DNA from: a virus
Virus record (IMG/VR): IMGVR_UViG_3300012953_000019
Span: 32,001 to 96,000 of that record
Strand: one strand, 5' to 3'
DNA: 64,000 bases
Of the stretch, positions 22,480 through 55,612 are shown one piece after another (position 1 is the stretch's first letter; each line of letters starts with the position of its first letter). The translations under genes were made by a program, and so were the position numbers. The notes under the pieces are model-generated. The model was not told where the DNA came from, made no database searches, and worked only from the letters and a program-made list of their open reading frames with translations.

Positions 22480-25400
22480 ATGGCACTAGACCTTAACGTA
22501 TCACCATATTATGACGATTTTGATGCATCAAAACAGTTTGAAAAAGTTCTTTTCAAACCTGGTGTAGCCGTACAGGCGCGAGAATTAACTCAACTTCAGT
22601 CATATCTTTCTAACGCTATCAACAATTCTGCTAGGTTTGCTCTTTCAGATGGTCAAAGAGTATTTGGTGGTGAGTCCACAATTTTACGTAAACCATATAT
22701 TAAAATCAATGATGTTGACGCTTCTGGCACTACCGTTGTAGATGCTGATCTATCAACATATGTAGGAGATACGATTACAGGATCAGTTACTGGAATCACA
22801 GCAAAAATTTTATCATCGCAAACTGGTACTGACTCTGATAATAGAGATAAGAAAACTTTTTACCTAGCTTATACTGGTGGTAATCCTACTGGCGCTGGAT
22901 CTGAGGGTAGTTCGATTCACTTTGACACAGGAGAAACTCTCACTGTATCATCAACTGTAACTGCTAGAAATGGTAAGACATTTGTAGTTGATAATACAGT
23001 AAGTAATACTGACGTATCTTTAAACTATTATGGGTATGGATTGTTTTTCGTAATTGCAGATGGTGTATTTTTTGCAAAAAAACAATTTGTAACTCACAAC
23101 AGACAAGAAATTTTATTAGACAAATATAAAACTAATGGAAGTTTTTACGTAGGTCTTAAAGTAACTGAATCTGTAGTAAATTCTGATTCTGATGCATCTC
23201 TACTTGATCCTTCATCTGGTTCATTTAATTACAACGCACCGGGTGCAGATAGATATAAAGTCACAACGACACTTTCTAAGAAATCACTTACAGTCGATAA
23301 CAATTTCCAGTTAGAAGCCGACGAAGATTTCGTTGCGGTTGACAAAATTATAGATGGTAGTTATTATCAAAAACTTCCAGACGATGCTGGCGCTCTTGCT
23401 GAATTGGGTAGAATTCTTGCTGAAAGAACGCATGAAGAATCTGGTAACTACATGGTTCATCCATTTACTTTGCAGGTTCAAGAGCATCTTAAAACTTCTT
23501 TTAACAAGGGTAGATTTGCGCCTGACGATCCTGACAGACCAGGAAACTCGCAAAAATTAGCGTGTATTATTGGTAATGGTACTGCATATGTTGGTGGATA
23601 TAGATATAATTTTCAAACTCCAACAGTAGTAGATATTGATAAAGCAACAACGACCGCAATTCAAGAAGGACAAACAATATCGACAGGATACGGAAACTAT
23701 TTCATTGTAGATGAATTTGTCGGTGCTTGGAATATTAAAGATGGAGATACAGTAACACTTTATGACACCGCAAAAAATGCGGCATCTGGTGGTGGTTATG
23801 GTTCTACAGCCGCACCAACATCTAGTAATATTGTTGGTCAAGCAAAAATTAAAAATCTATATTACGAATCTGGTACTATTGGCACATCAACTTGTAAGTA
23901 TAGAATATACTTGTATGATATTTCCATAACAAAAGGTAAACTTGAAGACGCTGAAGGAATATACTATTCAAATAGTACTGATAGTGGATTTGCTGATATA
24001 GTTCTTGAGGGTAGTCCTGCAATTGCAAAAATTAAAGAACAAACACAAAACAAATTAATCTTTAGGGCTCCATACTCAAATGCAAAAACTCTTGCGGCAG
24101 CCGGTGGTGGTAGCTATGATACGCAATATTACTATCAAGAAGAATTTGATGTAACTTTTGCTTCTGATGGTACTACAACCATAAGCACTACAGGAACATC
24201 TCAATTCCCATATTCAGGAAGTGTTACCCAAACAATCATCGATCAAAATTTCATATTGGTAGCAACTCAGGCTGCAACTATTAATAGCACTGCAACCCAA
24301 GAAGGAAGAGTAATTCCACTAACTCCTTCTATGATTACAAGTGCTAGTACTGGTGCAATCAGTTTCGATTTAGGAACTGTTAGTGGAGCATTTACGGCAA
24401 AAATGTTTGTAAAGGTCGTTAATGTTGATGCTCAACCAACACCAAAAATTTTAGTATCTAATGTTTATGTTAAAATCGATACTGCTACAAATTTTGGTGG
24501 AGCAAACGGTCCATGGGATTTAGGAATATCTGATGTTTTCCAAATAGATGAAGTTTATGTGGGTTCAACTTATTCAGAAGCAACAAATAATGTACAAGCC
24601 AATTTTGTTTTAGATACTGGTCAAACAGACAATGTTTATGGTCACGGTAAATTAGTTAAGAGTGATACAAAACCAATTTCTACTACCAATAAAAAAATAG
24701 TTGTAAAATTAAAATGTTTCACACCAAACTATGCGGCTACTGGTGGCACTTATTTTGCAATTGATTCATATCCCGTAGACGATACAGGAAATACTGGTAT
24801 TTTTTCATATCAGATGCCTACATATAAATCAATAAAAACAGGACCTTATAGATTACAAGACTGTATTGACTTTAGACCTTATGTTGTTAATACTGCGGTT
24901 ACATCAACAGCAACTTTGGCTGCCGCAACTGAAAATCCAACCAGAAGTAATACTATTAATCCTCCTTCTGACGGACTACAACACCCATCACCCATAAACA
25001 ATTTTACAACTGATGTAGAATTTTATCTTGCTAGACAAGATGTAGTAACGATTACACCTACAGGAAAATTTAATGTAATTAAAGGTGTTCCTTCTCTTAA
25101 TCCTCAAGTGCCTATAATTCCGGAATCAGAAGGAATGTCAATTGCAGGTATAGGTATTCCTCCATATCCTAGTGTATCTCCATTTCTCGGAGCTGTTACA
25201 GGACATCCAAATGTAGTAGGTAGAAAGCTGACGTTAGCTCGTAGATATTCTATGGCGGACATTAAGAGAATCGAAACAAGAATTGGTCGATTAGAATACT
25301 ACACTGCACTTTCTCTCATGGAGCAAGAACAACAAAACATGAACATAGAAGATGCAGATGGAAATACTAGATTTAAAAATGGTATTTTTATTAATACCTT

Positions 25401-28400
25401 TTCGGATCATTCTCTTAGTGATGTAGGAGATCCTGGATTTAAATGTGGTATTGATCCTATATTCAGAAGAGTTGGTCCTGCAAGAGATCAAACCCATATT
25501 GGATTACAACTGAATTCTACTACTTCTACTGGAATACAACAATCAGCCGAAATTGTTACTCTTCCTTTTACAAAGACAGTATTTTCAGAAAACAGATTTT
25601 CCTCTAAACCAAGAAATTGTGTAGGCGAGTTATTGTTTGATTGGGCAGGAGATTTAGATATTTCGCCTAGAGGCTCTAATTCTGAATTGCCACAAGATGC
25701 TGGAACTAGATATGTTGATGACAATAGCCTTAATACATTTGGTCAGATGTTAGCAGATGATATTAACAAGGCTCAAATTATAGCAGACTATGATATATCA
25801 TTTACAGGGACAGAAAACGACCCAGTAGTACAGCCATTTGAAAAGATCATACCAGAAAACGAAAAAATCACCGGTCTACATCCCAACGGTGGAACCGAGA
25901 TGTTTCCGCCAGTGGGCATGTCAACAAACGGTGTTTATCAGGAATCCAACACCAGCACTACCATTAATGCTTCGGGGACCGATCAAAGTGGTCGTCTTGT
26001 GGTAGATGTTGATACCAAGGGTACTGTGTCTATGGATGCATATATTGGAGCAGACACAACTACTACTACAAGTGCAAAACTTATAGGTGAAACAAAATCA
26101 AATAGTACTACCATGACGGCTACTGCAACTAAACAAATGCTTACGGCATCCTCGTCAGTTCATGGTATTCAACAAGTAGACGTAGGTAAAAAATTAATAT
26201 CGGCTACTTTAGATATGTATATGAGAGAAAAACTGCTCTTCTTTATAGGACAAAGATTAAAACCCAACACTAGAATGTATGGTTTCTTTGACGGAGAAAA
26301 ACTAGTTGGTAGTGAATTGTGGTCAATAAGAGATGGCAATACGACTATTGGTGGAGTTACAAAATCTTATATTAAACACGTGGTTGATTATAAAAATAAT
26401 GCAAGCACTCCTAATGATTCTCAAAATTGGTTTGACTATGCTTGGAACATTGGTTCTTTTGGCGGCACTGTACAATCTGGTCATATTTCACATGGTAATG
26501 TAAAATCAAATGCTGATGGACTTATAGCTGGATTTTTCGAGCTGAGACCAGGAAGATTTCTTGTTGGTGAAAGAATTTTAAGATTTACCGATGATGTTAG
26601 AGATCGTGCTGAATTTGTAACTACTTCTTGTGAAGCGCCATTCAGTTCCAATGGTATTACTACACAAGCACAAAACACCATTATATCTACTGCTGTACCA
26701 AAAATTCATTTGGGTAAGACCGCTCCCGCAACTGAACAGGTAGGTGAATGGACACACGTTACTAGTGTTTCTACTACAATTAAAGAATTCGATGTTAGTG
26801 TGGAAGTAACGACTGATCCCAAACTGCATATTAATCTTGAGAATGATGTTACCACTCACGTTGAAGTATCTGGAGGATTTGATCCTATTGCACAAACTTT
26901 CTTTGTATCAGAGCCAGACGGTGTTTTTGCTACAGAAGTTAAAGTATTCTTTAGAACAAAATCTGCTACTGAAGGTATTACGTGTCAAATTAGAGAAGTT
27001 ATGAATGGATACCCATCAAGAAGCATTTTACCTTATGGTGAAGTCTTTCTCTCGCCATCTGAAGTTGTAACAACTGTAGAAGAAAATGATGGAACATTAA
27101 GATTCTCACCAGTTGGTCAAGAAGATCAGCCATATGTTACAACGTTTACATTCCCTGCACCAGTTCAACTTAAAGGTGCAACAGAGTATTGTTTTGTTCT
27201 TCTACCAGCTGGTAATAGTCCTGACTATCAAGTTTGGGTTTCTCAACTTGGAGAAAATAGAGTTGGAGTAGGAGTACAAAATCAACGTATCTTTGCAGAA
27301 GATACAAATATTGGAGGTATGTTATTTACATCATCTAACAATAGAACTTGGAATGCTCACCAAGATGAAGATATGACTTATCAAATAACAAAAGCACAAT
27401 TTGCCACATCTGATGGTACAGTAATGCTTGAAAATCAAAACATTGATTATATGGTAACTACTGATTACACTTCTGGAAGACCAGAAACAAACTCTAGAAT
27501 TACGGGAGTTGATGCCACTTTGGCAAATGGTGGTTCTGGTCACGTAGCGGGTGATATTATTACTATGGCAGATGTTGTTGATGATGATGGTAATGTCTTG
27601 ACTGGTATGAAAATAAAAGTTTTAGCTCCAGCATCTGCAGGAACAATTACATCTTTTGAAATTACTGATCCTGGTACTCCTGCTGTAGGATTTAATAAAG
27701 TATCTTTAGGAACAATTAATCAATCTAGTACAACTGGTACAGGAACAGGAGCATCTATTAGTGCTAATCTGGTAACGGGTCAATTGAAGTTTATTGATGC
27801 CCAAAAGGAGAAAATGGAAGTTAATGTTACTAATGGTTTCTTTAGAAATCAAACTACCGGTGCTTTAATTACTCCACTAAAAGCTATTAAAAACCCGAAC
27901 ACTGGTGATCTTACACAGACCATATTTACTGTTACTGATCTTGAAGATAGAAAATATAATCAAGTTAGAACAACGATGAATCTTGTTGAAAATGATGGTA
28001 AAATTGGCTTTGAATATGCACCAACAAAATCAGCAAATGTAAATTCTGCCGGCACAACATATGAACCCCTATCATTAGATACTAGAAAAGTTACTGATAA
28101 TGAGAAGTCTGTTCGGTCGTATTCTAATGAAGGATACACTCTAAGTGGTGCAGATACCAAATCTCTACATAAAAGAATTAGTCTAAATTCAGGTAGTAAT
28201 CCAGACTTATCACCAGTCCTCGAAGTTACTGCATTAGGACTATTAACTAGTTCTAATCTAATTAACAATGATAGTACAAATGAAACTTTACCAGCATCTG
28301 GTAATGCACTATCAAGATTCATTAATTCACCTGTGCAACTTGCAGACGGAATGGAAGCCCAAGATATTCTTGTTCAATGTGCCCTATTGCAACCACCTGG

Positions 28401-29106
28401 ATCTAGTATCGAAGTTTATGGTAAATTCCAAGCTGCCGCAGATTTTGATGCAGATTTCAATAATGATTTGCCTTGGATAAAACTAGACAGAGATGATAAT
28501 CATTCACCTTATGGAAATTCTGCGTCTGAAACTGCATTTACAGATTTTGGATTTAAAATTCCTGATGCAAATCTGGTAAACGGATCATTTGCATATACAA
28601 CTGATAGAGTAACAGAACTGACTCTCACACAAGCTGGAGCAGGATATACATCTGCACCAGAATTATCTTTTAGTACTGGCGAGGCAACTGCGATTGCATT
28701 ATTATCTGGTAATACTGTTGGTTCAATACAATTAACAAATCCAGGAAGAGATTATGCGGGTGTAACTCCAACAGTTACAGTAGGAACGCAATACGCAAAT
28801 TCAACATCATATGCTACTGGACAACAAGTTGCAACTGCCGCTGGAAATCTATATACTGTACAAACTGGTGGCACTAGCGCGGCTAGTGGAACTGGTCCAT
28901 CTGGAACTCAAGCATCGCCACCCGTTCAAGAAACTGATGGAACTGCCGTATTTGTATATGTAGGACCAGCCGCTCAAGTAACAGCAACAGTAAGCACAGT
29001 AACTTTTGATGAATATAAAAAGTTTGCTACTAAACTAGTATTCTTGGCTTCTAATACGTCAAACATACCGTATGCAAAACAACTACGTGTAATAAACGTA
29101 ACTTAA
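22480..29106 (+). CDS. Large virion structural protein (DUF4815/VrlC-like), putative fibre or receptor-binding protein
   Basis: 2208 aa. LNVSPYYDDFD..K.F.KVLFKPG.AVQARELTQLQS, GADRYK, RLEYYTALSL.E, RFKNG.F.N.F and DPIAQTF motifs. CBM-like Y..G..V...G..Y near the C-terminus. Confidence 0.75.
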   Translation: MALDLNVSPYYDDFDASKQFEKVLFKPGVAVQARELTQLQSYLSNAINNSARFALSDGQRVFGGESTILRKPYIKINDVDASGTTVVDADLSTYVGDTITGSVTGITAKILSSQTGTDSDNRDKKTFYLAYTGGNPTGAGSEGSSIHFDTGETLTVSSTVTARNGKTFVVDNTVSNTDVSLNYYGYGLFFVIADGVFFAKKQFVTHNRQEILLDKYKTNGSFYVGLKVTESVVNSDSDASLLDPSSGSFNYNAPGADRYKVTTTLSKKSLTVDNNFQLEADEDFVAVDKIIDGSYYQKLPDDAGALAELGRILAERTHEESGNYMVHPFTLQVQEHLKTSFNKGRFAPDDPDRPGNSQKLACIIGNGTAYVGGYRYNFQTPTVVDIDKATTTAIQEGQTISTGYGNYFIVDEFVGAWNIKDGDTVTLYDTAKNAASGGGYGSTAAPTSSNIVGQAKIKNLYYESGTIGTSTCKYRIYLYDISITKGKLEDAEGIYYSNSTDSGFADIVLEGSPAIAKIKEQTQNKLIFRAPYSNAKTLAAAGGGSYDTQYYYQEEFDVTFASDGTTTISTTGTSQFPYSGSVTQTIIDQNFILVATQAATINSTATQEGRVIPLTPSMITSASTGAISFDLGTVSGAFTAKMFVKVVNVDAQPTPKILVSNVYVKIDTATNFGGANGPWDLGISDVFQIDEVYVGSTYSEATNNVQANFVLDTGQTDNVYGHGKLVKSDTKPISTTNKKIVVKLKCFTPNYAATGGTYFAIDSYPVDDTGNTGIFSYQMPTYKSIKTGPYRLQDCIDFRPYVVNTAVTSTATLAAATENPTRSNTINPPSDGLQHPSPINNFTTDVEFYLARQDVVTITPTGKFNVIKGVPSLNPQVPIIPESEGMSIAGIGIPPYPSVSPFLGAVTGHPNVVGRKLTLARRYSMADIKRIETRIGRLEYYTALSLMEQEQQNMNIEDADGNTRFKNGIFINTFSDHSLSDVGDPGFKCGIDPIFRRVGPARDQTHIGLQLNSTTSTGIQQSAEIVTLPFTKTVFSENRFSSKPRNCVGELLFDWAGDLDISPRGSNSELPQDAGTRYVDDNSLNTFGQMLADDINKAQIIADYDISFTGTENDPVVQPFEKIIPENEKITGLHPNGGTEMFPPVGMSTNGVYQESNTSTTINASGTDQSGRLVVDVDTKGTVSMDAYIGADTTTTTSAKLIGETKSNSTTMTATATKQMLTASSSVHGIQQVDVGKKLISATLDMYMREKLLFFIGQRLKPNTRMYGFFDGEKLVGSELWSIRDGNTTIGGVTKSYIKHVVDYKNNASTPNDSQNWFDYAWNIGSFGGTVQSGHISHGNVKSNADGLIAGFFELRPGRFLVGERILRFTDDVRDRAEFVTTSCEAPFSSNGITTQAQNTIISTAVPKIHLGKTAPATEQVGEWTHVTSVSTTIKEFDVSVEVTTDPKLHINLENDVTTHVEVSGGFDPIAQTFFVSEPDGVFATEVKVFFRTKSATEGITCQIREVMNGYPSRSILPYGEVFLSPSEVVTTVEENDGTLRFSPVGQEDQPYVTTFTFPAPVQLKGATEYCFVLLPAGNSPDYQVWVSQLGENRVGVGVQNQRIFAEDTNIGGMLFTSSNNRTWNAHQDEDMTYQITKAQFATSDGTVMLENQNIDYMVTTDYTSGRPETNSRITGVDATLANGGSGHVAGDIITMADVVDDDGNVLTGMKIKVLAPASAGTITSFEITDPGTPAVGFNKVSLGTINQSSTTGTGTGASISANLVTGQLKFIDAQKEKMEVNVTNGFFRNQTTGALITPLKAIKNPNTGDLTQTIFTVTDLEDRKYNQVRTTMNLVENDGKIGFEYAPTKSANVNSAGTTYEPLSLDTRKVTDNEKSVRSYSNEGYTLSGADTKSLHKRISLNSGSNPDLSPVLEVTALGLLTSSNLINNDSTNETLPASGNALSRFINSPVQLADGMEAQDILVQCALLQPPGSSIEVYGKFQAAADFDADFNNDLPWIKLDRDDNHSPYGNSASETAFTDFGFKIPDANLVNGSFAYTTDRVTELTLTQAGAGYTSAPELSFSTGEATAIALLSGNTVGSIQLTNPGRDYAGVTPTVTVGTQYANSTSYATGQQVATAAGNLYTVQTGGTSAASGTGPSGTQASPPVQETDGTAVFVYVGPAAQVTATVSTVTFDEYKKFATKLVFLASNTSNIPYAKQLRVINVT

Positions 29107-30182: not shown

Positions 30183-31157
30183 ATGGCTGGCCCAATTACA
30201 CTAAAAGCAAGTTCGTACCCAGCATCTGCTAGTACAATTCAAGGCGTTAGGGAACTTACGACTGCTGAAATTAGAGATCATATTGCATATGTTATTACTA
30301 ATAAATTTGCAACCGATACCGATGGGACGGGCACTGCTGAATTACAAGTTATTACGGATGCTTTAGATACCGACTACACTGAAGTAGGAACTTTTACCAA
30401 TAGAGAAAGAACCGAAGCAGTGGGTACTCACCCAGCTGGTGGTGGCACGACTACTACCACATATAGAATCCAACAGAAAAATGCTGTAATTTCTGAAAGT
30501 GTTACCAGACCATTAAGATGGGATGATAAAAATATCGATGAAATGACTGACGGTCTTATCGATACAGAACTCTTAGATGAAGTTATTACTGCTATGGTAA
30601 CTGAAGATGCCAATACAGTTGGTCAATATCATATTAATACATCAACACCATCTGGTGGAACTTGGGCAGTAAGAGGTACCATTACAGAAACACAAGTTGA
30701 TGGAACTGATGTAGCATATAATCTGTATCAAAAAACTGCACCAACAACAGCTGCCGCTACCAATATAAACAGATTGTTAAAGAGTGATGGCACGGGTGGT
30801 CAAGCAGAAATGACCGATGCTGAAATGGAAACTCTTAACACAGCAATGAGAAATAGAATCATTAGTACTGGTATAGGAACTTATCTATTAAATAATGGTC
30901 AACCTTCTGCCGCCGGAACTTGGGCTCAGATGGGTTCAACAATGACCGACCAATTAAAAGATGTTACTTCACAAAACTATTCCGGAGACTATACAGGATC
31001 GTACACTGGTTACTATAACAGATTCTTTTCTGGATTTTTAAATGGTGCATATGCTGGTTCATACTCTGGTACATATACTGGAACTTATGCTGGCAACACA
31101 GTACAATCATCTAGTTCTACACAAGAAACAAAACAGTTGTTCGTAAGAACTGCTTAA
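30183..31157 (+). CDS. Virion structural or fibre-like protein with a C-terminal Tyr-Gly repeat
   Basis: 324 aa, Thr-rich, with YSGDYTGSYTGY...YAGSYSGTYTGTYAG near the end. Confidence 0.6.
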   Translation: MAGPITLKASSYPASASTIQGVRELTTAEIRDHIAYVITNKFATDTDGTGTAELQVITDALDTDYTEVGTFTNRERTEAVGTHPAGGGTTTTTYRIQQKNAVISESVTRPLRWDDKNIDEMTDGLIDTELLDEVITAMVTEDANTVGQYHINTSTPSGGTWAVRGTITETQVDGTDVAYNLYQKTAPTTAAATNINRLLKSDGTGGQAEMTDAEMETLNTAMRNRIISTGIGTYLLNNGQPSAAGTWAQMGSTMTDQLKDVTSQNYSGDYTGSYTGYYNRFFSGFLNGAYAGSYSGTYTGTYAGNTVQSSSSTQETKQLFVRTA

Positions 31158-31175: not shown

Positions 31176-31183
31176 TATAAATA
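31176..31183 (+). promoter_or_regulatory. Late promoter TATAAATA upstream of the chaperone-GT-oxygenase genes
   Basis: Exact consensus. Confidence 0.8.
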
Positions 31184-31185
31184 AT

Positions 31186-31216
31186 AAGGCAGAGCATACC
31201 ACTCTGCCTTTATTTT
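31186..31216 (+). terminator. Hairpin terminator overlapping the late-promoter start region
   Basis: AAGGCAGAG-catacca-CTCTGCCTT followed by TATTTT. Confidence 0.7.
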
Positions 31217-31233
31217 AATTATGAGGATATATA

Positions 31234-31695
31234 ATGTCAGATCAACCTAAGTACAAAAACCCAAAATGGATTAATAAAGAAGTACGCTCTTTAGAGTGTG
31301 AGATTCTTATGGGCGAAGAATATCAAAACTGTATTGTCAATGCTGGACCAGTAAAAGATGGATTTGTCAATAAAGACTTTGATGCAATTATGGAACTTAT
31401 TGGTGAAGAAGAAGTGGATCGTCTTACTGCAATAGAAGACGAAAAGAAACTAGCAGAAGAAGAAAAAAAGAAAGAACAAGCAGAAGTTCATAAAAATAGA
31501 ATTAAACAAGAAGCCTTGTTTGAAATGAAACTAGAAGCATTTGAAATTCCTATCATCAAAAACTCAAAAAATTCTGAAATGAAAAAGAATATCCGTAGAG
31601 CAAAATCTATTGTAGAAGTGCAGGCGTATTCAACGATACTAATTCAAGAAGAATTAACAGATAGTAATTTGAAGGAACTATTATCTAATGACTAA
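31234..31695 (+). CDS. Possible tail-fibre assembly chaperone (Tfa-like)
   Basis: The N-terminal KNPKWINKE..LECEI resembles the NPxW....IxCE start of Tfa-type chaperones, followed by a charged helix. Follows fibre genes. Confidence 0.45.
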   Translation: MSDQPKYKNPKWINKEVRSLECEILMGEEYQNCIVNAGPVKDGFVNKDFDAIMELIGEEEVDRLTAIEDEKKLAEEEKKKEQAEVHKNRIKQEALFEMKLEAFEIPIIKNSKNSEMKKNIRRAKSIVEVQAYSTILIQEELTDSNLKELLSND

Positions 31696-32404
31696 AGGCT
31701 ACGTTTATGTGGCTTCATTAAATAAAGATTATTATCGTGCCGCAAAGATGTCGGCAGAGTCTCTTAAAGATTTTTATCCAGAAGCAAATATAACACTGTT
31801 TACTCACGATGAATGGGTAACAGACGAAGACTATTTAATTTTCAATAACATCATAACCGAAGATGTTCCTGCTAATAACAGAGCAAAGTTATGGGCATTA
31901 TCACAAACACCATATGATTTGACTATGTATTTAGATTGTGATACGATGATTGAACATGAAGACATATCTACTATATTTGATTATATAGGCAATCATGATA
32001 TTATCTTTACTAAGAACAGACCATATAATGCAAAAATAACAAAGCTAAATGATACAGAAGAAATGATTTATCATTGTGGTGTGTTTTTATATAAAAAAAC
32101 TTCCAAAATAAAATCACTAATGGACAATTGGTACAAAGAATATTTGATACAAATTGATCCTGAATATTGTCTTGACCCTTATCCAGAAAAAGTAAGACCG
32201 TGGGACACATTTACTATGTGGTGGCTTTTAAATAAAACAAGTTTTAAAGATTTAATTAATGTAGGTGAATTTCCATTACCAGATGCCAGATGGAATTTTT
32301 GTATGGGTCAAAGACCAGAAGAATTGAAAGATAAAGATGTTATCATAAGACATTATACATTGAATAGGGTATTTGATTCAAATGAATATTATAGACAACC
32401 TTAA
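31688..32404 (+). CDS. GT-A fold glycosyltransferase (GT8-like)
   Basis: KLWALSQTPYD.TMYLDCDT (DxD), HCGVFLY, WDTFTM and RWNF motifs. Confidence 0.8.
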   Translation: MTKGYVYVASLNKDYYRAAKMSAESLKDFYPEANITLFTHDEWVTDEDYLIFNNIITEDVPANNRAKLWALSQTPYDLTMYLDCDTMIEHEDISTIFDYIGNHDIIFTKNRPYNAKITKLNDTEEMIYHCGVFLYKKTSKIKSLMDNWYKEYLIQIDPEYCLDPYPEKVRPWDTFTMWWLLNKTSFKDLINVGEFPLPDARWNFCMGQRPEELKDKDVIIRHYTLNRVFDSNEYYRQP

Positions 32405-33026
32405 TCCAGAACTAAAAAAGATGTTAGAAGATTGGCGAAAATGGTTTGATAAGCAAGATGATCATGATACAATCTTACCAGACCCGGGTAGAGATTTTGG
32501 ACATACTTTACAAACAGCAACGTCTTCTGACTATCTTGAAGAGGTAAGAAAAGAAAGCCATAAAGGCACACCAGAATGTGCCATAGTTACAGACTTTCAT
32601 GTAAGTCCGGGCTCTCCTAAAAAATATAGAGATTCTTCTTTAGAGTTGTGTACTAATGTTTGTGGTTTTTTAGGAGCAAAGTTTACTGCTGTTCACGCAT
32701 ATTATCCAACAAATGGATTTATGGGATGGCATTGCAATTGGGACACTCCTGGGTATAATATTTTGTTGAGTTATACTAAAAATGGAGAAGGATTCTTTAG
32801 ACATACTAAAGATTCTAGTATTAAAACGCTACAAGATACTCCTGGTTGGTCAGCAAAAGTTGGATACTTTGGAGGTAAAGATGAAGACTCATCTAAACAC
32901 GTTTGGCATTGTGCTGGTAGTACAGAACCAAGACATACATTAGGATTTGTTATACCAGATTTTAATATGTGGGAAATGATGTGTCAAGATATAGATGAAG
33001 ACTGGCGAAGAAGTTTATTTCCTTAA
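32382..33026 (+). CDS. 2OG-Fe(II) oxygenase-like protein
   Basis: YYPTNGFMGWHCNWD...GEGF...VWHCAG...R (His...His...Arg double-stranded beta-helix pattern). Start at 32382 is preferred. Confidence 0.65.
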   Translation: MNIIDNLNPELKKMLEDWRKWFDKQDDHDTILPDPGRDFGHTLQTATSSDYLEEVRKESHKGTPECAIVTDFHVSPGSPKKYRDSSLELCTNVCGFLGAKFTAVHAYYPTNGFMGWHCNWDTPGYNILLSYTKNGEGFFRHTKDSSIKTLQDTPGWSAKVGYFGGKDEDSSKHVWHCAGSTEPRHTLGFVIPDFNMWEMMCQDIDEDWRRSLFP

Positions 33027-33718
33027 AAGAACCCCTCTCTTTGTCCAATAATCATATAACGATCATAGACTTTTTTGCCATCCCATGAATAATATGTTTG
33101 TTGTTTAGTACCCTCATAGCCTACTTCTTCAATACCAACTTGGTCTTTCAATGCTTCTATTGAATTTACACAGTTAATACCATACATCTCTTCAACTACA
33201 TTACTATTCTGTACAGCTAAAATTGCTTGAGGATTCTTTGTTGTCAATTCTTTTAGTGGATACATCTGTTCTGTACACATACAGATAACTAGATCAACAT
33301 CAATCTTATTGAGATTTTCAAACTCAAATGGGACATCTAAATTCCAATGACGAATGTTGACAAACTTTTCTTGAGCATAATGTTTGTGAAAAATCTTTGA
33401 CAATTCAATTGACTCTTCATCAATATCTACAAGGTGTATTTGAGATACATCTATATTTTCACACAACAGAGGAACTATTGGAATACCTAACCAAGAGTTT
33501 AATATTAACACTCGCATAGAACCAGTCTTAGTATAATACTCTTCAATATACTCTTTAACTTCTTCTATTAACCACGTACTGGCTTCCATGTTATTACCTT
33601 CAAGAGATTGTCTAAAGTCAGCCAGCTTATGTGGCATTCTTTTTTCAATTACTGAAAGTGCTTCACCCCAATTCTTAAAGTTGTTTAGAAAGTTATAATT
33701 TAAATTAGAATTTGACAT
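33023..33718 (-). CDS. Class I SAM-dependent methyltransferase-like protein
   Basis: RVLILNSWLG (motif I-like), HLVDIDEE, DLVICMCTEQM and a terminal RYMIIG strand. The true start is probably MSNSN at 33718. Confidence 0.65.
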   Translation of the reverse strand: MSNSNLNYNFLNNFKNWGEALSVIEKRMPHKLADFRQSLEGNNMEASTWLIEEVKEYIEEYYTKTGSMRVLILNSWLGIPIVPLLCENIDVSQIHLVDIDEESIELSKIFHKHYAQEKFVNIRHWNLDVPFEFENLNKIDVDLVICMCTEQMYPLKELTTKNPQAILAVQNSNVVEEMYGINCVNSIEALKDQVGIEEVGYEGTKQQTYYSWDGKKVYDRYMIIGQREGFF

Positions 33719-34379
33719 CTTCACTTTTCCCCATTGAGTCAAAAATACATACATATGGTAAGTCTCTATACACATGAGTTTCAGTATCATGTGGATAAAC
33801 ATACCCTTGATTAAAACTATATACCCAACCAATTGGGAATAGTTTTGTCTTTACAATTCTTCTATTATAGAAAAAGTTATCTAGACCACGATAGTACCAT
33901 AATATTTGATTTTGATATTCATTAAAATATTCGATAATTTCATTACTATTTAGACTGTCATTCCAACGAAGAACTGACGAATTTAAATCAGTAAACTTGT
34001 GTGGAACATGGCGAGTGTCTTTATACTGTGTATCTAAATCATGCCACCAAGTCTTAACAAAACATAAGCAGTCTTCTGCATCAAAGTTTGCTATATCATC
34101 AATGTTCTTTTGCAGTATGGTATCTAAATCAAAGAACATTTTCTCTCCCCTTTGAGTAACAATAGTCTCATCGAAGAGGTACATTTTATTCCACCACTTC
34201 TCCAATTTGTTACCACCAGGCAATGACAGTATTTTAATTTTAGAATTTATATCTTTACTATCTTCAGTTAGACAATGAAATGTAAAATCCATACTCAAGT
34301 TTTCAAGACAACTTTCATATAGTTGATTGACATGAGATGCATTGTATTTTGTACCCCATTTTACAGTATAGATATTCAT
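33705..34379 (-). CDS. Glycosyltransferase (KWGxKY family, DxD)
   Basis: VKWGTKY, FHCLTED, WWNKMYLF, FFDLDTIL and NSSVLRW motifs. Confidence 0.8.
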   Translation of the reverse strand: MNIYTVKWGTKYNASHVNQLYESCLENLSMDFTFHCLTEDSKDINSKIKILSLPGGNKLEKWWNKMYLFDETIVTQRGEKMFFDLDTILQKNIDDIANFDAEDCLCFVKTWWHDLDTQYKDTRHVPHKFTDLNSSVLRWNDSLNSNEIIEYFNEYQNQILWYYRGLDNFFYNRRIVKTKLFPIGWVYSFNQGYVYPHDTETHVYRDLPYVCIFDSMGKSEDVKF

Positions 34380-35194
34380 TCGCCTCTCCAGTGTTTCAAG
34401 AGTTCTGGATGTGTTAAGTTATCTTGTTTTGTACTGCCTCTACTTGCATCTTCAAACGGAAGTAGATCAATATTGAATACACAGACAATACAGTTTTCTC
34501 TATACTTGGCTACATTCAAATCATCTTCTTCCCATGATCTACCCCTGTTCCAAGAGTATGCCATCCAGGATGGGAAATGATCCCACAAGTCTTCTCCGTA
34601 TCTACCCCATTTCCAGGAGTGATAATTATCAGTACCATCAGTATATGTAAACCAAATCTTTTCTTGATTTGCTAGTACGTCTTCCCATATACATTCACAT
34701 TGATCATCTGACCACGCTTTACATGAACCATTTGTATACGCTCCATGTGATAGTTTAAATCTTCTTGTTTGCATTGGTCTTGGGTCTTGCCACCAAGACT
34801 TCATCTTTGTAGGTCTTTCCATATTGTATGTAATTATAGGAGTTAGATCACCTTGAATAATTACGTCCAAATCGAAAAATATGAAGCGACCGTTAGGTTT
34901 GTCAGGAGCAAAATTATGAGTATTAAATACAAAAGTTTTTGCTCTGTCCCAACACCTTGCCATCCCGTACTTGAAATCTTCCGCACCAAACCAATACTTA
35001 GGATGAATGTTAGGAATATCAGGAAAATCAATAATAGTAACATCATCATCTATACCTTCTGCGTCATCAGTGTAGCAATAGAAATGAAACTCAAACTGGT
35101 CAGGAGTATTTCTTTTTGCCATATCTTTTAGTCTATTCACAAAATGGGGACCATATTTCGTACCCCATTTAGCACATATATAATTTACTCTCAT
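34376..35194 (-). CDS. Glycosyltransferase (KWGxKY family, DxD)
   Basis: CAKWGTKY, FYCYTDD, FFDLDVII and NGSCKAW motifs. Confidence 0.8.
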   Translation of the reverse strand: MRVNYICAKWGTKYGPHFVNRLKDMAKRNTPDQFEFHFYCYTDDAEGIDDDVTIIDFPDIPNIHPKYWFGAEDFKYGMARCWDRAKTFVFNTHNFAPDKPNGRFIFFDLDVIIQGDLTPIITYNMERPTKMKSWWQDPRPMQTRRFKLSHGAYTNGSCKAWSDDQCECIWEDVLANQEKIWFTYTDGTDNYHSWKWGRYGEDLWDHFPSWMAYSWNRGRSWEEDDLNVAKYRENCIVCVFNIDLLPFEDASRGSTKQDNLTHPELLKHWRGE

Positions 35195-37692
35195 CTACAT
35201 TTTCCACATTTTTTGGTGCATATATCTAGTGGCTTTCTTTTTAAATGCTCACTGATATTTGCAAAATCATTATTATGTATTACTTCACCTGTAGTAAACC
35301 CTGCTAGGTTATTATACTTCATATTGTAAGGATAGTCAATAGGGTGATATGGTAAAAGTTTATTTTCTACCACATCTCTTGCAATGAAGGCGCAAGGAAA
35401 AGCATTGCTAGATGAACCAATATAAAAGTATCCACTTTTTCTAGCATCGCACCACACTGGATCTTTTTCTTTCATTTTAGGTTTAGTTGTTCTTATTTCA
35501 TTTTTCTTTGCAAACTGCTTTAGAGTATGAAAGTCTATTGGTTTATCTTTTGCAATAGTATCTTCAATTTGATTCTCTTGTTCTGACTTTAACTCAGGCA
35601 ATACTTTTTGTATATGATCAACATATACAAGAGATTCTATATCACTAAATGTCTGTAAAGTTATAGTAATATTTTTGTCTTTTAGATACTTGCATATTTC
35701 TTCCAACTCTACACAGTTTACTGGGTCTGTTATCTCACACATAAAAGTTACCCAAGAAACTTTGTAACTATCGAATATATTTTTTATACTTTTTAGAGTG
35801 TGTTCATTGCCGTCTACAAAAATGTCATTGAACTCTATGTTCGTATCATTCTGGCGAGTACTTAATTGTATCAGTGCGCCATCTGGTTCTTCATCTTCAT
35901 ATAGACCACGATACAAATCACTGTATTGTTCTCCATGCATTTGAAAATACTTTATGAGTGTATTTGTATCATCATCTTTCTGATTCATGATAGAAAGTAA
36001 TTCTTCTTTGGGCATGATATTGTATAATCGCTCAAAGACTTTTTCATAATCTTCTTTGTAAAACAATTCTTTTAGATATTCAATATAATATTTTTTATAT
36101 AGTGATTGTATCTCATCCGAATCAGTGTCCCAAAAGATACACTGAATACCATGATCTACTACATTCTTCATAAAGTCTACTTTAATTGATGGTAAAGTAT
36201 TTTTATGCCACATTCTTCTATACAATGCGATTGCTTGTAGTCTAGTTATTTTCCAAAAGTATCTTACTGGTCCGTGTACTTTTACTTCTTCTGCTACGAC
36301 TTTGTGCATCTTAGAAATATATCTTTCTTTGTAGAAATCATATACTTCCATTACAGTCTTGTTCCAGTACAATGATTCGTCACCATTTACGAGTATTGAA
36401 TCGTCTGGATAATCAGCAATAAATTTCTTGTGCATAGAAATCATATCACCAGTTTCATAGAGTTCTCTTATAGTCTGTAAATGTATTGAATCTATTTGTC
36501 TAATAAATGTAGTATCTGATATTTCTCTTTCTAGTTCCGGAAGAGATTTCTTTATATCGTCTACATTACCAGTTAAGTGTGCATCTATCTCCGGAAAATC
36601 ATTTACGAATTTATTTACAAGAGACTGTAAATCATTGCTCTTTATAAGTGATTCGATATCTTCAACAACTTCTTTATTCATAAAACGATTCTCTAGCATT
36701 TCATCTGTCAGAGATTTCATTCCTAACCATTCTTTTAGGGTATTGAAATTCTTTGAGTACTGGTCCCAATCAGACTGTAAGCTAGGTAAATCTTTTGCAA
36801 ACTTTTTTTCTAGTGTATCGTAGTCTTTATTTGTGAGAAGATTCTCAATCTTAACCGTGTGCTTGTTTCTAGTAAAGAAGTTTTTAGGAAATTTAGGTAA
36901 CCACAACTTTTCAAATTCATCTTTGCCGTGCCAATGTATGAGTAGATTGTAGTTTTTTAATTCATGTGGCTTTACATTTTTACTTTTTTTATTTACTAAA
37001 TCTACATTGAATAGACAAAATTTGGCATTTTCTCTGTATAGTTGTTCTGTAGTATCATCGGGATATTGTTTACCTCTATTATAAGAGTACACCCAATCTA
37101 CTGGTAAGAAACTCCAGTAGTTATCACCCACTACTTGATGTTCTCTGTAGGGATAGTAATTATCTGTGCCTTTGTAGAATGTTTTAAATACAACATCTTT
37201 GTGTTGCATAACATCGTTATAAATCTTTTCTCCTTGATCAGTACACCATAACATTACACTTGAGTTATACAGTGACCCTCTTATATCTAAGAATCTTCTA
37301 TCAGAAGTTACTTCTGGATTTTCCCAGTTAGAATATATCATGTGAGGAGATTTGGCTAGCTGTTCTATATCATCTATGTTGTTTTGAATCACAACATCTA
37401 AATCTAAGTAGCAGAAGGGTCCTTTAGTTTTTAGCCATATATGAGAATTGAGCATGAGAAACTTGGCTCTATCCCAGCAATAATTTTCTTTACCAAACCA
37501 ATATCTTGGATGAAGTGGGTCAACATTAGGAATAGGTCGAGTAGTAATACCCTTGTTTATACCTTCTGGCTCATCTGTATAGCAGATAAATTTAAAACGC
37601 TTGGAGTAATTGCGCTTAACCATTCCATGAAGGTTGTTTACATAATCCGAGGTGTATTTGTTACCCCATTTTATGCATAGAAAATGCATCAT
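35191..37692 (-). CDS. Fusion: glycosyltransferase + helical repeats + degenerate radical SAM/SPASM-like domain
   Basis: N-terminal CIKWGNKY, ICYTDEP, YLDLDVVI and NSSVMLW; central I..L...D....KF..D.P repeats; C-terminal C-x15-AFPCA...CTKKCGKC. Confidence 0.7.
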   Translation of the reverse strand: MMHFLCIKWGNKYTSDYVNNLHGMVKRNYSKRFKFICYTDEPEGINKGITTRPIPNVDPLHPRYWFGKENYCWDRAKFLMLNSHIWLKTKGPFCYLDLDVVIQNNIDDIEQLAKSPHMIYSNWENPEVTSDRRFLDIRGSLYNSSVMLWCTDQGEKIYNDVMQHKDVVFKTFYKGTDNYYPYREHQVVGDNYWSFLPVDWVYSYNRGKQYPDDTTEQLYRENAKFCLFNVDLVNKKSKNVKPHELKNYNLLIHWHGKDEFEKLWLPKFPKNFFTRNKHTVKIENLLTNKDYDTLEKKFAKDLPSLQSDWDQYSKNFNTLKEWLGMKSLTDEMLENRFMNKEVVEDIESLIKSNDLQSLVNKFVNDFPEIDAHLTGNVDDIKKSLPELEREISDTTFIRQIDSIHLQTIRELYETGDMISMHKKFIADYPDDSILVNGDESLYWNKTVMEVYDFYKERYISKMHKVVAEEVKVHGPVRYFWKITRLQAIALYRRMWHKNTLPSIKVDFMKNVVDHGIQCIFWDTDSDEIQSLYKKYYIEYLKELFYKEDYEKVFERLYNIMPKEELLSIMNQKDDDTNTLIKYFQMHGEQYSDLYRGLYEDEEPDGALIQLSTRQNDTNIEFNDIFVDGNEHTLKSIKNIFDSYKVSWVTFMCEITDPVNCVELEEICKYLKDKNITITLQTFSDIESLVYVDHIQKVLPELKSEQENQIEDTIAKDKPIDFHTLKQFAKKNEIRTTKPKMKEKDPVWCDARKSGYFYIGSSSNAFPCAFIARDVVENKLLPYHPIDYPYNMKYNNLAGFTTGEVIHNNDFANISEHLKRKPLDICTKKCGKCR

Positions 37693-38314
37693 AATATTTC
37701 TGTCTCAAATTTACTTTTGTTTCATTTTGTCCATTCAACAATACAATAGGATATTCTGGTTTTATTTGAAATTCTCTTGGTGAAGTATCAGTGTCTTGAT
37801 CCACTCCACATAGGAAAGAATATATCATACCTTTAGGAAAAGTATGCTGTATTAACTTTTCATGATACAGAAACCAATCATCATTGTCGTTATATTTAGT
37901 CATGTAGTAATACGGATTTTCTATCCAGTGATCAAATATGTATTTACAATCTTTTGAATTCCATGTCATAACAGAAGAATTAAACTCACTACCAAAATCT
38001 TTCCAATATGTTTTACATATCGTGGGGTGCTTACAATATTTAAAAAATATATCTACATCAGATTGTAACACAATATCTAGGTCTAAGTAAAGAACTTTAC
38101 CAATATTTGTTAGACTAAATAGTTGTATCTTTTTCCAATGACTTTCGATATCTTTATTAATGAACTTAACATCTATTTCAGGTCGAAGTAGATGGGCATG
38201 ATCTTTATCGGTTAAACAAACATAGTTATATTTGCCACCAGTGGCATCATATATTCTGTGAACATCATCTACGGTGTACTTATTTCCGTAAAGAAGCGTA
38301 AGAATAGTCTTCAA
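37661..38314 (-). CDS. Glycosyltransferase (KWGxKY-related, DxD)
   Basis: LLYGNKY, VCLTD, HWKKIQLF, YLDLDIVL and FNSSVMTW motifs. TTG start with a GGAG RBS. Confidence 0.78.
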   Translation of the reverse strand: MKTILTLLYGNKYTVDDVHRIYDATGGKYNYVCLTDKDHAHLLRPEIDVKFINKDIESHWKKIQLFSLTNIGKVLYLDLDIVLQSDVDIFFKYCKHPTICKTYWKDFGSEFNSSVMTWNSKDCKYIFDHWIENPYYYMTKYNDNDDWFLYHEKLIQHTFPKGMIYSFLCGVDQDTDTSPREFQIKPEYPIVLLNGQNETKVNLRQKYYDAFSMHKMG

Positions 38315-38331: not shown

Positions 38332-38339
38332 TATAAATA
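38332..38339 (+). promoter_or_regulatory. Late promoter TATAAATA
   Basis: Exact consensus upstream of the second fibre block. Confidence 0.8.
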
Positions 38340-38366
38340 GATTACAGAACAGAGGAACTGCAATAT

Positions 38367-38693
38367 ATGGCAACGGTAAATAATATCGTGATTGATCAGG
38401 GCACTACCTTTTCATTTACGGTCAATCTTACGAATGACGATGGCACTAAGAAAGATTTGACGAATTATACCGTCACTTCTCAGATGCGTAAAAGTTATTA
38501 TACTACTACTTATACGTCATTTACCACAGCTAAAATAGCACTAGAGGGGCAGATTACCATATCTTTGACCGCCGCTCAATCATCTGCTATAAAGGCTGGC
38601 AGATATGTTTATGATATTGAGATTGCTAGTTCAACTGAAACATTAAGAATTATGGAAGGAATCGTGACTGTAACTCCTGAGGTTACCAAGTAA
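38367..38693 (+). CDS. Virion structural protein (BppU-N/Ig-like)
   Basis: IDQGTTF, DLTNYT..SQMRKSY and AGRYVYDIEI...R..EGIVTVTPEVT motifs. Confidence 0.7.
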   Translation: MATVNNIVIDQGTTFSFTVNLTNDDGTKKDLTNYTVTSQMRKSYYTTTYTSFTTAKIALEGQITISLTAAQSSAIKAGRYVYDIEIASSTETLRIMEGIVTVTPEVTK

Positions 38694-38971
38694 TGGCAGT
38701 AAAAGTAAACATACCATCAAACTCAAGTACTACTAAGGTTAGTATACCATCAACGAGTACTATTGCTACAGTTACGACTACACAATCTCAGGCAATTACA
38801 AATGCAAAGTTACAAAATTTAGCCAATATTGATACCGCAACTAATGGTTTATTGGATGGACACACTTTGGTTTATGATGAAGAAACGGGCAACTTTGTTG
38901 CTCAAGCATTAACTGCTTCCGTTGATATTGATTCATTGAATCTAACATCATTGGATGGCGGAACTTATTAG
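38693..38971 (+). CDS. Small Ser/Thr-rich fibre-associated protein ending in DGGTY
   Basis: L.NL.NID....LDGHTLVYD motif and C-terminal LDGGTY. Confidence 0.65.
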   Translation: MAVKVNIPSNSSTTKVSIPSTSTIATVTTTQSQAITNAKLQNLANIDTATNGLLDGHTLVYDEETGNFVAQALTASVDIDSLNLTSLDGGTY

Positions 38972-39030: not shown

Positions 39031-40293
39031 ATGGCAACAACAATTCAAATAAAGCGATCCACTGCTTCAGCCGCACCCGGAACAGGTGACTTAGCAGAAG
39101 CGGAACTCGCGTATAGCCAAGATAAAAGTAACGATGGCGCAGGTGCCATACTTTATATTGAATCCGTAAATAACGATAGTAGCCAAGTAATTCATAAACT
39201 TGGTGGTAAATTTTACACTGATATCGTTGACGGCGCAACCAATGCAAATACTGCAAATAAACTTGTAAAAAGAGATGCTAGTGGCAACTTTGCGGCTGGT
39301 ACTATTACGTTTGGCAGTCTTACTGATGGTACAATCACAGCAACTGGCTTTGTTGACGAAGATAATATGGCATCTAATAGTGCTACACTTATCCCAACTC
39401 AACAATCAGTTAAAGCATACGTAGATTCTAAAGATTTCTATGTAGACCTTGGTATAGCTGGCGATTCTGGTACTGGAGCAATTACAGATGCAGAAACACT
39501 TACTCTTACTGGTGGAACAGGTATCACAACAGCGGTATCTGGTAACGCAGTTACCCACACACTAGATAACACCGCTGTATCAGCAGGTAGTTATGGTAGT
39601 GCTACTGCTATTCCTACTTTTACAGTAGACGCACAAGGTAGATTGACAGCCGCAGGCACTGCTTCAGTTTCAACTTCATTTACTATTGCTGGTGATAGTG
39701 GTACTTCAAATGATATTGATGGTGGAGAAACTCTTACTTTTAATGGTACAACAAATGAAATAGAAACCGCAGTATCAGCAAATGCAGTTACTATTGGTCT
39801 TCCTACTAATCCAACTATTGGTGGTAATCTTACTGTTTCTGGTAACTTAACAGTATCAGGTACAACTACAACAGTTGATTCACAGAACTTGTCAGTAGTT
39901 GATCCTTTGTTTGCACTCGCATCAGGTAACAATTCATCAGATGCAGTTGACATTGGTTTTTACGGACTGTATGACACTTCTGGTTCACAAGACTTATATT
40001 CAGGTTTCTTTAGAGATGCAAATGACGGTAAGTGGAAACTGTTTAAAGATACACAAACCGTACCGACAACAGTTGTTGATACCACTGCTACTGGTTATAC
40101 TGTAGCAACTTTGGTAGCAACTCTGGAAGGTAACGTAACTGGTAATGTTACTGGTACAGTTTCAAGTATTGCAAACCACGATACAGACTCATTGAGTGAA
40201 GGATCAAGTAATCTTTACTACACATCCGCACGTTTCAATAGTGCATTTGATACTAGACTTGACGCCTCAACTATAGACGGTGGTACTTACTAA
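39031..40293 (+). CDS. Tail fibre protein
   Basis: N-terminal TIQIKRS motif; LVKRDASGNF, GSYGSATAIPTFTVDAQGRLTAA and TDSLSEGSSNLYYT; C-terminal IDGGTY. Confidence 0.8.
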   Translation: MATTIQIKRSTASAAPGTGDLAEAELAYSQDKSNDGAGAILYIESVNNDSSQVIHKLGGKFYTDIVDGATNANTANKLVKRDASGNFAAGTITFGSLTDGTITATGFVDEDNMASNSATLIPTQQSVKAYVDSKDFYVDLGIAGDSGTGAITDAETLTLTGGTGITTAVSGNAVTHTLDNTAVSAGSYGSATAIPTFTVDAQGRLTAAGTASVSTSFTIAGDSGTSNDIDGGETLTFNGTTNEIETAVSANAVTIGLPTNPTIGGNLTVSGNLTVSGTTTTVDSQNLSVVDPLFALASGNNSSDAVDIGFYGLYDTSGSQDLYSGFFRDANDGKWKLFKDTQTVPTTVVDTTATGYTVATLVATLEGNVTGNVTGTVSSIANHDTDSLSEGSSNLYYTSARFNSAFDTRLDASTIDGGTY

Positions 40294-40893: not shown

Positions 40894-40929
40894 GCTAATA
40901 TATATTTATAGAGAGTAAAGAGATAAACT

Positions 40930-55234: not shown

Positions 55235-55612
55235 GTGGCATATAGCGATAAAGTTATAGATCACTATGAAAATCCTCGAAACGTAGGCAAATGGGATCCA
55301 GACACAGATGGTATTGGCACCGGCATGGTAGGTGCACCCGCGTGTGGAGATGTTATGAGACTACAGATTAAAGTCGAAGATGATGTGATCACAGATGCAA
55401 AATTTAAAACATACGGATGCGGTTCTGCAATCGCTTCCAGTTCATTACTAACAGAGTGGGTAAAGAACAAGACCCTAGAAGAAGCAGGTCAGATAAAGAA
55501 TACAGAACTTGCTGAAGAATTGGCTCTTCCACCTGTAAAAATACATTGCAGTGTACTAGCAGAGGATGCTATTAAGGCTGCCATTGAAGACTACAAGGAA
55601 AAATATGCCTAA
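55235..55612 (+). CDS. iscU: Fe-S cluster scaffold IscU
   Basis: YSDKVIDHYENPRNVG, GAPACGDVM, TYGCGSAIASSS and LPPVKIHCSVLAEDAIKAA, with all ligands intact. GTG start after a GGAG RBS. Confidence 0.95.
   Translation: MAYSDKVIDHYENPRNVGKWDPDTDGIGTGMVGAPACGDVMRLQIKVEDDVITDAKFKTYGCGSAIASSSLLTEWVKNKTLEEAGQIKNTELAEELALPPVKIHCSVLAEDAIKAAIEDYKEKYA

Follow-up and report, generated by a model that had tools for sequence, protein, structure and literature searches.

A conserved glycosyltransferase cassette beside a tyrosine-repeat protein in a marine T4-like phage, a candidate system for decorating a fibre-region protein

Clusters rich in glycosyltransferases (GTs) are already known among the fibre genes of marine T4-like phages and, to our knowledge, nobody has shown what such clusters glycosylate. 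The question is raised again by a locus at positions 31688 to 38314 of a 64,000-nt stretch of viral DNA (positions 32001-96000 of the 116-kb IMG/VR record IMGVR_UViG_3300012953_000019, the completeness of which is estimated at 70%; hereafter, the window), where the initial annotation had placed an island of five GT domains, a 2-oxoglutarate (2OG) Fe(II) oxygenase and a methyltransferase that would decorate the virion. On the question of virion versus host surface, this compact and fixed cassette names a candidate acceptor, the tyrosine-repeat protein f324. We tentatively propose, with a probability of roughly 0.4, that the cassette decorates this protein, its minus-strand arm extending the glycan, and we consider remodelling of the host surface to be a strong rival.

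Seven open reading frames (ORFs), A to G, fill the locus as two convergent arms, A-B on the plus strand and G-F-E-D-C on the minus strand, in agreement with the initial annotation. At 33023-33026 the stop codon of B overlaps that of C, leaving no spacer between the arms. The features on which the argument draws are as follows.

30183-31157, plus strand: f324, a fibre-region protein rich in Thr and Gly, whose C-terminal part has a Tyr-x-Gly-x repeat (about aa 262-303, nt 30966-31092), the candidate acceptor, from its sequence
31176-31210, plus strand: late-type promoter TATAAATA (31176-31183) followed directly by a terminator-like hairpin (31186-31210), from a motif scan
31234-31695, plus strand: o153, a 153-aa Glu/Lys-rich coiled-coil partner, always the first gene of the o153-A-B unit, from sequence and synteny
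31688-32404, plus strand: A, a glycogenin-like GT8 glycosyltransferase with DxD motif DCD83 (D83-C-D85), from a family profile against glycogenin
32382-33026, plus strand: B, a prolyl-hydroxylase-like protein of 2OG-oxygenase fold with a non-canonical H117-x-N119 ... H176 ... R184-x-T signature, from an AlphaFold2 (AF2) fold match
33023-33718, minus strand: C, a putative Rossmann-type, spermidine-synthase/methyltransferase-like protein, from weak matches to Pfam, NCBIfam and a PDB profile
33705-34379, minus strand: D, a PmgQ-like GT8-type glycosyltransferase (KWGTKY, DLD84), from hhalign against the G family (probability 99.4) and phrog_1962
34376-35194, minus strand: E, a PmgQ-like GT8-type glycosyltransferase (KWGTKY, DLD108), from hhalign against the G family (probability 98.5)
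35191-37692, minus strand: F, a PmgQ-like GT domain (aa 1-270, nt 36883-37692; KWGNKY, DLD97) fused to a 563-aa C-terminal region, from hhalign against the G family (probability 99.5)
35311-35339, minus strand: internal sigma70-like promoter TTGACT-N17-TATAAT (11/12 match), 117 nt before E and within the 3' end of F
37661-38314, minus strand: G, a PmgQ-like GT8-type glycosyltransferase (LYGNKY, DLD78), the first gene of the minus arm, from its AF2 model and phrog_1962
38332-38693, plus strand: p108, a small LtfC-like beta-sandwich protein with a late promoter TATAAATA at 38332-38339, from a weak Pfam LtfC match

All five GT domains are GT8-like GT-A enzymes, and the number first proposed stands on the fold of the G model, the hhalign paralogy of D, E and the F N-terminus, the glycogenin match of the A family, and a DxD motif that is present in all five domains and does not vary within the family alignments. 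Built with 31 homologues, the AF2 model of G has a predicted local distance difference test (pLDDT) score of 92, and its Foldseek matches (probability 1.0, template modelling score of about 0.6) were LgtC, at the top, glycogenin, LARGE1, XXYLT1 and Gat1; against PDB sequences the best match of the G-family profile was Gat1 (E=0.007). G also matched phrog_1962 (E=1e-14) and, at about 25% identity, PmgQ of phage P1 and HdmD of phage P7 (E 1e-5 to 1e-4). Judged by these alignments, D, E, the F N-terminus and G are four anciently diverged paralogues of one PmgQ-like family (phrog_1962), to which the P1 and P7 proteins also belong; unlike the genes of this cassette, P1 PmgQ is a single gene beside a phosphatase gene. 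The profile of the A family (n=43) matched glycogenin-1 and -2 with E values from 2.6e-8 to 8e-7, over the N-terminal half only (profile positions 7-100). Seven members of this family match PF01501 and seven match PF03407, D83 and D85 are invariant, and the window's own A protein has no Pfam match. Glycogenin is a GT8 enzyme that glucosylates its own tyrosine, and the likeness includes, besides the profile match and the DxD motif, a Tyr-rich candidate acceptor two genes upstream of A, which unlike that of glycogenin is a separate protein. No membrane segments were found in any island protein, all being soluble, and no lipid-carrier, flippase or polymerase genes were seen among the genes listed for the island; that the five GT proteins are soluble nucleotide-sugar transferases is supported. 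A Pfam search with the seven island proteins returned a single sub-threshold match (C, Spermine_synth), and at the DNA level the island matched none of 50,697 GenBank phage records.

The gene arrangement is widely kept. A profile search of IMG/VR with B recovered at least 582 loci, and the window proteins were mapped onto the best 80 of these, in which gene set, order and strands are fixed down to 42% identity of B: the giant baseplate protein, p67, f278, f324, o153, A and B, then C, D, E, F and G on the opposite strand, then p108 and the fibres. Over the same range each of the four PmgQ-like paralogues is retained as a separate orthologue in fixed order, and this recurrence of the paralogues and of the whole gene order is more than chance. 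Many loci combine 72-100% identity of C, D and E with 42-69% identity of B, f324 and the giant protein, and E, at 72-98% across relatives, is the most conserved gene of the region; since C, D and E thus exceed the structural neighbours in identity, the enzymes are under the stronger constraint. A Tyr-x-Gly-x repeat is found in the ORF upstream of o153 in nearly all of 45 unique relatives (median of 10 Tyr per 40 aa versus a background of 5). Phage C48C1 (Kyanoviridae), the only one of the 50,697 GenBank records with homologues of A, B, o153 or f324, has all four. Its order is a 3347-aa protein with dozens of copies of the Tyr-rich repeat of f324, then o153, A, B and, directly 3' of B, a p108 homologue annotated as a tail-fibre assembly protein, and the minus arm is absent. 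Identities between the two plus-arm modules are 27-42% (o153, 41.6%; p108, 34%). Because C48C1 has the module without the minus arm and the repeat is conserved in the relatives, the region is, on this comparison, made of two parts, an old module [Tyr-repeat protein]-o153-A-B-p108 and a later insertion, C-G, between B and p108. The synteny check named in the initial annotation, whether homologous clusters are linked to fibre-region genes, came out positive in that the plus arm is tied to the repeat protein across a large evolutionary distance.

Variants of the arrangement were also seen. In the relatives L011-L013, B has the opposite orientation to o153-A and shares the strand of C-G, as though it were the last gene of that operon. 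A divergent relative (L080:5660-13036) has beside B a GT25 gene, two PmgQ-like GTs, a C-like gene, and genes for radical SAM/SPASM, QueC-like and GNAT proteins and a sodium:solute symporter. In Pelagibacter phage Mosig (L087, MT647606, 124832-130666), next to RuvC and nrdB, a G-family GT belongs to a cluster made up of two methyltransferases, two GTs and a sulfotransferase, and this cluster is possibly an early-region counterpart of the minus arm.

The source genome is, as judged from its genes, that of a marine T4-like myophage of an abundant uncultured clade. PHROGs identified its genes for baseplate, neck, sheath, portal and capsid, and its major capsid protein shares 67-68% identity with the counterparts in OM43 phage Melnitz and Pelagibacter phage HTVC008M. 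psbA was found neither in the record nor in three relatives that are at least 91% complete, and the phage is therefore not a typical cyanomyovirus. The cassette is located between the giant DUF4815 baseplate protein (22480-29106) and gp13/gp14, with gp15 downstream too. In this it resembles the host recognition cluster (HRC) of pelagimyophages and cyanomyophages, also marine T4-like, in which fibre genes mixed with mostly GT8 GTs lie between a giant VrlC-like baseplate gene and gp13/gp14; the pelagimyophage HRC was described as non-syntenic and hypervariable and was read as a means of modifying the host O-chain (Zaragoza-Solas et al. 2020, PMC7029224). Unlike the HRC, the cassette has a gene order that is fixed in the best 80 loci, and it contains a module of Tyr-repeat protein, GT8 enzyme and H-x-N protein, whereas the word "oxygenase" occurs 0 times in PMC7029224. 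The literature searched contained no fixed cassette that joins a Tyr-repeat partner, a glycogenin-like GT8 enzyme and an H-x-N oxygenase-like family.

The initial annotation had set the island between two fibre blocks, of which the downstream one stands, p420 and p339 having fibre or baseplate matches in PHROGs. The upstream block has no family match (f278, f324 and o153 in PHROGs and Pfam, o153 also in NCBIfam), and its last member, at 31234-31695, is the coiled-coil protein and not a fibre. f278 and f324 are rich in Thr, Gly and Ala; the neighbouring proteins contain 23-29% Ser plus Thr, and f324 has its Tyr-Gly repeat, as had been noticed of these Ser/Thr-rich neighbours from the outset. 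Collagen-like G-X-Y runs suited to a prolyl or lysyl hydroxylase were sought and none was found. The gene at 1-720, which had been proposed to supply the sugar, is indeed an NAD-dependent epimerase/dehydratase, and one such gene is present in all four clade genomes searched; two SGNH proteins had been suggested to tailor the glycan, and the call for the one at 55566-56348 received no support from Pfam.

From these folds, motifs, paralogies, gene orders and the promoter patterns described below, we infer the acceptor and sugars, the sequence of the steps, a hydroxylation or methylation if there is one, and a final place for the product on the virion. On this reading the locus would work in the cytoplasm as a glycosylation cassette of two parts. 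The first part of the locus (f324, o153, A and B), an old four-gene module, would most likely modify the repeat protein: A would use a UDP-sugar as donor and attach its sugar to a hydroxyl group within the repeat, either of Tyr, the residue that glycogenin modifies, or of Ser/Thr, and B would prepare or bind the substrate. The second part, four PmgQ-like GTs and C, would be an operon inserted tail-to-tail behind B, and it would most likely add sugars singly, and a small tailoring group, to the glycan of the first part. A more specific version, a cytoplasmic pathway in which A starts the glycan on the repeat Tyr (or neighbouring Ser/Thr) of a tail appendage, the four PmgQ-like GTs, each specialised, extend it to a defined oligosaccharide and the H-x-N protein B joins in, seems to us rather unlikely, and its Tyr linkage is something that we purely infer.

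Parts of this scheme have parallels elsewhere. In the Skp1 pathway the hydroxylase PhyA and cytoplasmic GTs, including the GT8 enzyme Gat1, place a short glycan on one protein, and here a fold of the prolyl hydroxylase domain (PHD) type is likewise found with several soluble GTs; members of that pathway also appeared as matches, DdPhyA for the fold of B (Z 9.3) and Gat1 as the best hit of the G family among PDB sequences. Unlike in the Skp1 pathway, B is without the Asp iron ligand and the repeat without proline, and the likeness is at the level of fold or superfamily only. Serine-rich-repeat adhesins of streptococci are glycosylated stepwise in the cytoplasm by enzymes that include GT8 enzymes such as GlyE, and these systems resemble the cassette in that several soluble GT-A/GT8 enzymes are encoded beside a repeat-rich protein, but the cassette lacks both a GtfA/B-type initiating pair and an accessory Sec system, and its repeat is of another type. 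Among phages, Freeman et al. reportedly showed in 2023 (a study cited in PMC12801897) that capsid and tail-tube proteins of mycobacteriophage virions are O-glycosylated; there too soluble phage GTs adjoin the structural genes and are thought to act directly on virion proteins. Unlike that system, the present one is predicted from its genes, its enzymes are GT8-like, its candidate acceptor is a Tyr-Gly repeat and its promoters are mostly not of late type. If the fibre is the target, virions would be glycosylated in a phage group abundant in the ocean, with possible effects on how hosts are recognised, how stable the particles are and how they stick to marine polysaccharides, and the cassette would give a first functional context both to the H-x-N oxygenase-like family and to the PmgQ-like GT family that is shared with coliphage P1.

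B had been called a 2OG-Fe(II) oxygenase, and of this the fold stands. The AF2 model (pLDDT 93.5) is a double-stranded beta-helix of 2OG-oxygenase fold by both Foldseek and VIA; the top 50 VIA matches are all 2OG oxygenases, led by PHD-type prolyl hydroxylases (Z 9.2-9.8). AlkB-type enzymes reach Z 9.1, less than one Z unit behind, so that the fold score does not settle the subfamily, and NgTET1 and AlkB homologues lie within the matches at Z 8.2-9.1. By sequence the assignment did not hold, as B has no Pfam match and its facial triad departs from H-x-D/E...H, with N at H+2 in 97 of 97 homologues. The B-family profile returned nothing meaningful from PDB sequences, Pfam searches over 30 homologues gave noise only, and a canonical 2OG oxygenase (PF13640), sought as an alignment guide, was not found in the genome or its relatives. 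The distal H176 is kept, and H117, H176, R184 and T186 are invariant or nearly so; R184-x-T186, invariant and eight residues past H176, was given a putative role in contacting the 2OG C5-carboxylate from this spacing. On the model, the H-x-N proteins may constitute a new branch of the prolyl-hydroxylase-like fold.

The methyltransferase assigned to C fared similarly. One shared stretch of the protein gave weak matches to Pfam Spermine_synth (E=0.0037, below the cut-off), NCBIfam speE (E=0.008) and a PDB spermidine synthase profile (E=0.19), and a protein atlas based on a language model offered only weak methyltransferase leads (Methyltransf_31). The glycine-rich motif I (GxGxG) is missing, an invariant S75-W-L-G78-x-P80 standing in its place, and D98 and D100 are invariant in the family. 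The 301 homologues at E<=0.001 were unnamed close relatives only, and Pfam domains were absent from all 120 that were listed; in Pfam and NCBIfam no C5-cytosine methyltransferase matched C. Its methyltransferase function is thus putative and a methylation step is not established. Of the hydroxylate-glycosylate-methylate pathway first envisaged, soluble GTs with a prolyl-hydroxylase-like partner remain, while hydroxylation is doubtful on account of the H-x-N signature and methylation unproven. The C-terminal region of F (nt 35191-36882, minus strand) had no Pfam or NCBIfam match, and phmmer against all ORFs of the genome of at least 80 aa found only itself. Across 24 sequences, with identities down to 47%, seven of its cysteines (C652, C667, C748, C767, C825, C829 and C832) never vary, which suggests a metal or Fe-S site. 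A BLASTP comparison with the radical-SAM/SPASM ORF of the relative L080 was not significant, and some relatives or lineages carry F without the extension.

The timing of expression bears on the target as well. The late-type promoter TATAAATA occurs 19 times in the window, 17 of these on the plus strand, and usually precedes late genes; the copy that had been predicted at 31176 is there, and together with the hairpin behind it (31176-31210) it makes o153-A-B a transcription unit of its own. Among 47 relatives, the same spot before o153 holds TTGACA-N16-18-TATAAT with at least 10 of 12 matches in 22 (13 of them perfect) and nATAAATA in 20. In the sigma70-type version the -10 box lies in the hairpin loop, and transcripts from the o153 promoter would miss the 5' arm of the hairpin (late type) or start beyond the loop (sigma70 type). 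The promoter class at this spot differs among the relatives (L006-L085). TATAAATA stands before f278, the first gene of the f278-f324 unit, in 30 of 30 unique relatives and before p108 in 28 of 29; the spacer between G and p108 (17-66 nt) carries it on the plus strand in 20 of 26 unique intergenic regions, and never on the strand of G. The internal promoter in F is kept, at 11/12, in 28 of 49 unique relatives versus 1.6% of random windows. It overlaps conserved codons, yet Asp786 of F is encoded by GAC in every listed relative with the F C-terminal domain, though GAC makes up only 24-26% of Asp codons. Consensus sigma70 promoters of this genome precede non-structural genes, and no terminator was found between the convergent arms. 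By analogy with T4 and cyanophages, most of the island looks early-type, unlike its structural neighbours. A lone minus-strand TATAAATA was also seen at 40903-40910, in the spacer between p140 and p339, and reads antisense across the fibre genes toward G, 2.6 kb off.

For decoration of the repeat protein speak the GT8-type folds and DxD motifs of all five domains, the solubility of the proteins, the persistence of the module as far as C48C1, the repeat upstream of o153 in nearly all relatives, and paralogues that are better conserved than the flanking structural proteins, as well as the place of B on the minus-arm strand in L011-L013, the tailoring enzymes beside B in L080 and the epimerase in four of four genomes. 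Several points weigh against it. Unlike the flanking structural genes, the minus arm has a late promoter in no relative; E-D-C, and in many relatives o153-A-B, lie behind sigma70-type promoters, and the argument that a late promoter favours the virion did not survive, given that the minus arm never has TATAAATA, that E-D-C follows a sigma70-like promoter and that the plus arm matches sigma70 at 10/12 or better in 22 of 47 relatives. Enzymes made early are nonetheless compatible with a substrate made late. B may not hydroxylate anything, its acidic iron ligand being missing, and the f324 repeat contains neither Pro nor Lys. f324 is itself a putative virion protein, its place in the particle not proven, and the enzyme chemistry is predicted from sequences and models. 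In the cultured phages Mosig and C48C1 the G-family GTs lie in non-structural regions, GT8 enzymes are also typical enzymes of the lipopolysaccharide (LPS) core, and clusters of this kind have been published as modifying the host O-chain (PMC7029224).

The last points lead to the host surface. There the GTs would act early, at the inner face of the membrane, on the core of LPS or lipooligosaccharide (LOS) or on another envelope glycan, superinfection would be blocked or progeny kept off lysed cells, and the position among fibre genes would be a permissive insertion site only. This we hold possible, though on balance unlikely. It draws on the early-type promoters of E-D-C and often of o153-A-B, on a minus arm without late promoter, on LgtC, an LPS/LOS enzyme, as the top Foldseek match of G, on the Mosig cluster of G-family GTs with methyltransferase, GT and sulfotransferase genes beside nrdB and RuvC, and on the published interpretation of the pelagimyophage HRCs (PMC7029224). 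It leaves unexplained, however, why o153-A-B is strictly linked to the Tyr-repeat protein across very distant phages and why the locus is syntenic instead of hypervariable, and it is hard to see what a prolyl-hydroxylase-like protein would do in LPS work.

The two arms might also serve different ends, o153-A-B serving the Tyr-repeat protein, through modification or assembly, and the minus-arm operon being an independent, early accessory glycan cluster with another target, which we judge distinctly unlikely. In C48C1 the plus-arm module occurs with no minus arm, and the G-like GT of that phage is found in another place; within the window the arms differ in promoter class, and the overlapping convergent stops without a terminator suggest that they are not transcribed simultaneously. 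Against such a division, the adjacency of B to C-G is retained in all close and middle-distance relatives, B is on the minus-arm strand in L011-L013, and the divergent relatives again have GTs and a C-like gene beside B.

A catalytically altered B (H-x-N), and perhaps A, could instead bind or chaperone the Tyr-repeat protein, like the non-structural fibre chaperones of the T4 late operons. The acidic iron ligand is absent from B homologues throughout (97/97), the coiled-coil partner o153 is always present, and p108 is weakly LtfC-like, its C48C1 homologue being annotated as a tail-fibre assembly protein. This explanation appears improbable to us: the near-invariance of H117, H176, R184 and T186 in B is what one expects of a working metal/2OG site, A keeps its invariant DxD, and iron enzymes exist that have two His ligands only (AspH) or an Asn ligand (lipoxygenase).

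Hypermodification of DNA, in which a base would be hydroxylated by the oxygenase-like protein and glycosylated by the GTs, in the manner of base J or of phage TET-GT clusters, is suggested by the set of oxygenase, GT-A enzymes and possible methyltransferase, by the early-type promoters and by NgTET1 and the AlkB homologues among the fold matches of B, but we regard it as very improbable, since PF00303 (thymidylate synthase/dCMP hydroxymethylase) was not found in the record or in the three relatives at least 91% complete, a search for PF12851 (Tet_JBP), confined to the window's own record, was negative, C matched no C5-cytosine methyltransferase in Pfam or NCBIfam, the cluster is tied to the repeat protein and fibre genes and not to replication genes, and five GT domains are many for modifying a base.

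Minor features were seen outside the cassette. The proteins p92 (38693-38971) and p420 (39031-40293) share a C-terminal end, ...DGGTY, and an IDGG motif recurs, twice in f278 and also within p420; these motifs may be a shared C-terminal docking or processing signal of fibre proteins. Near the other end of the window, a gene at 2789-4291 encodes a 500-aa B12-binding radical SAM protein and adjoins gp32 and gp59.

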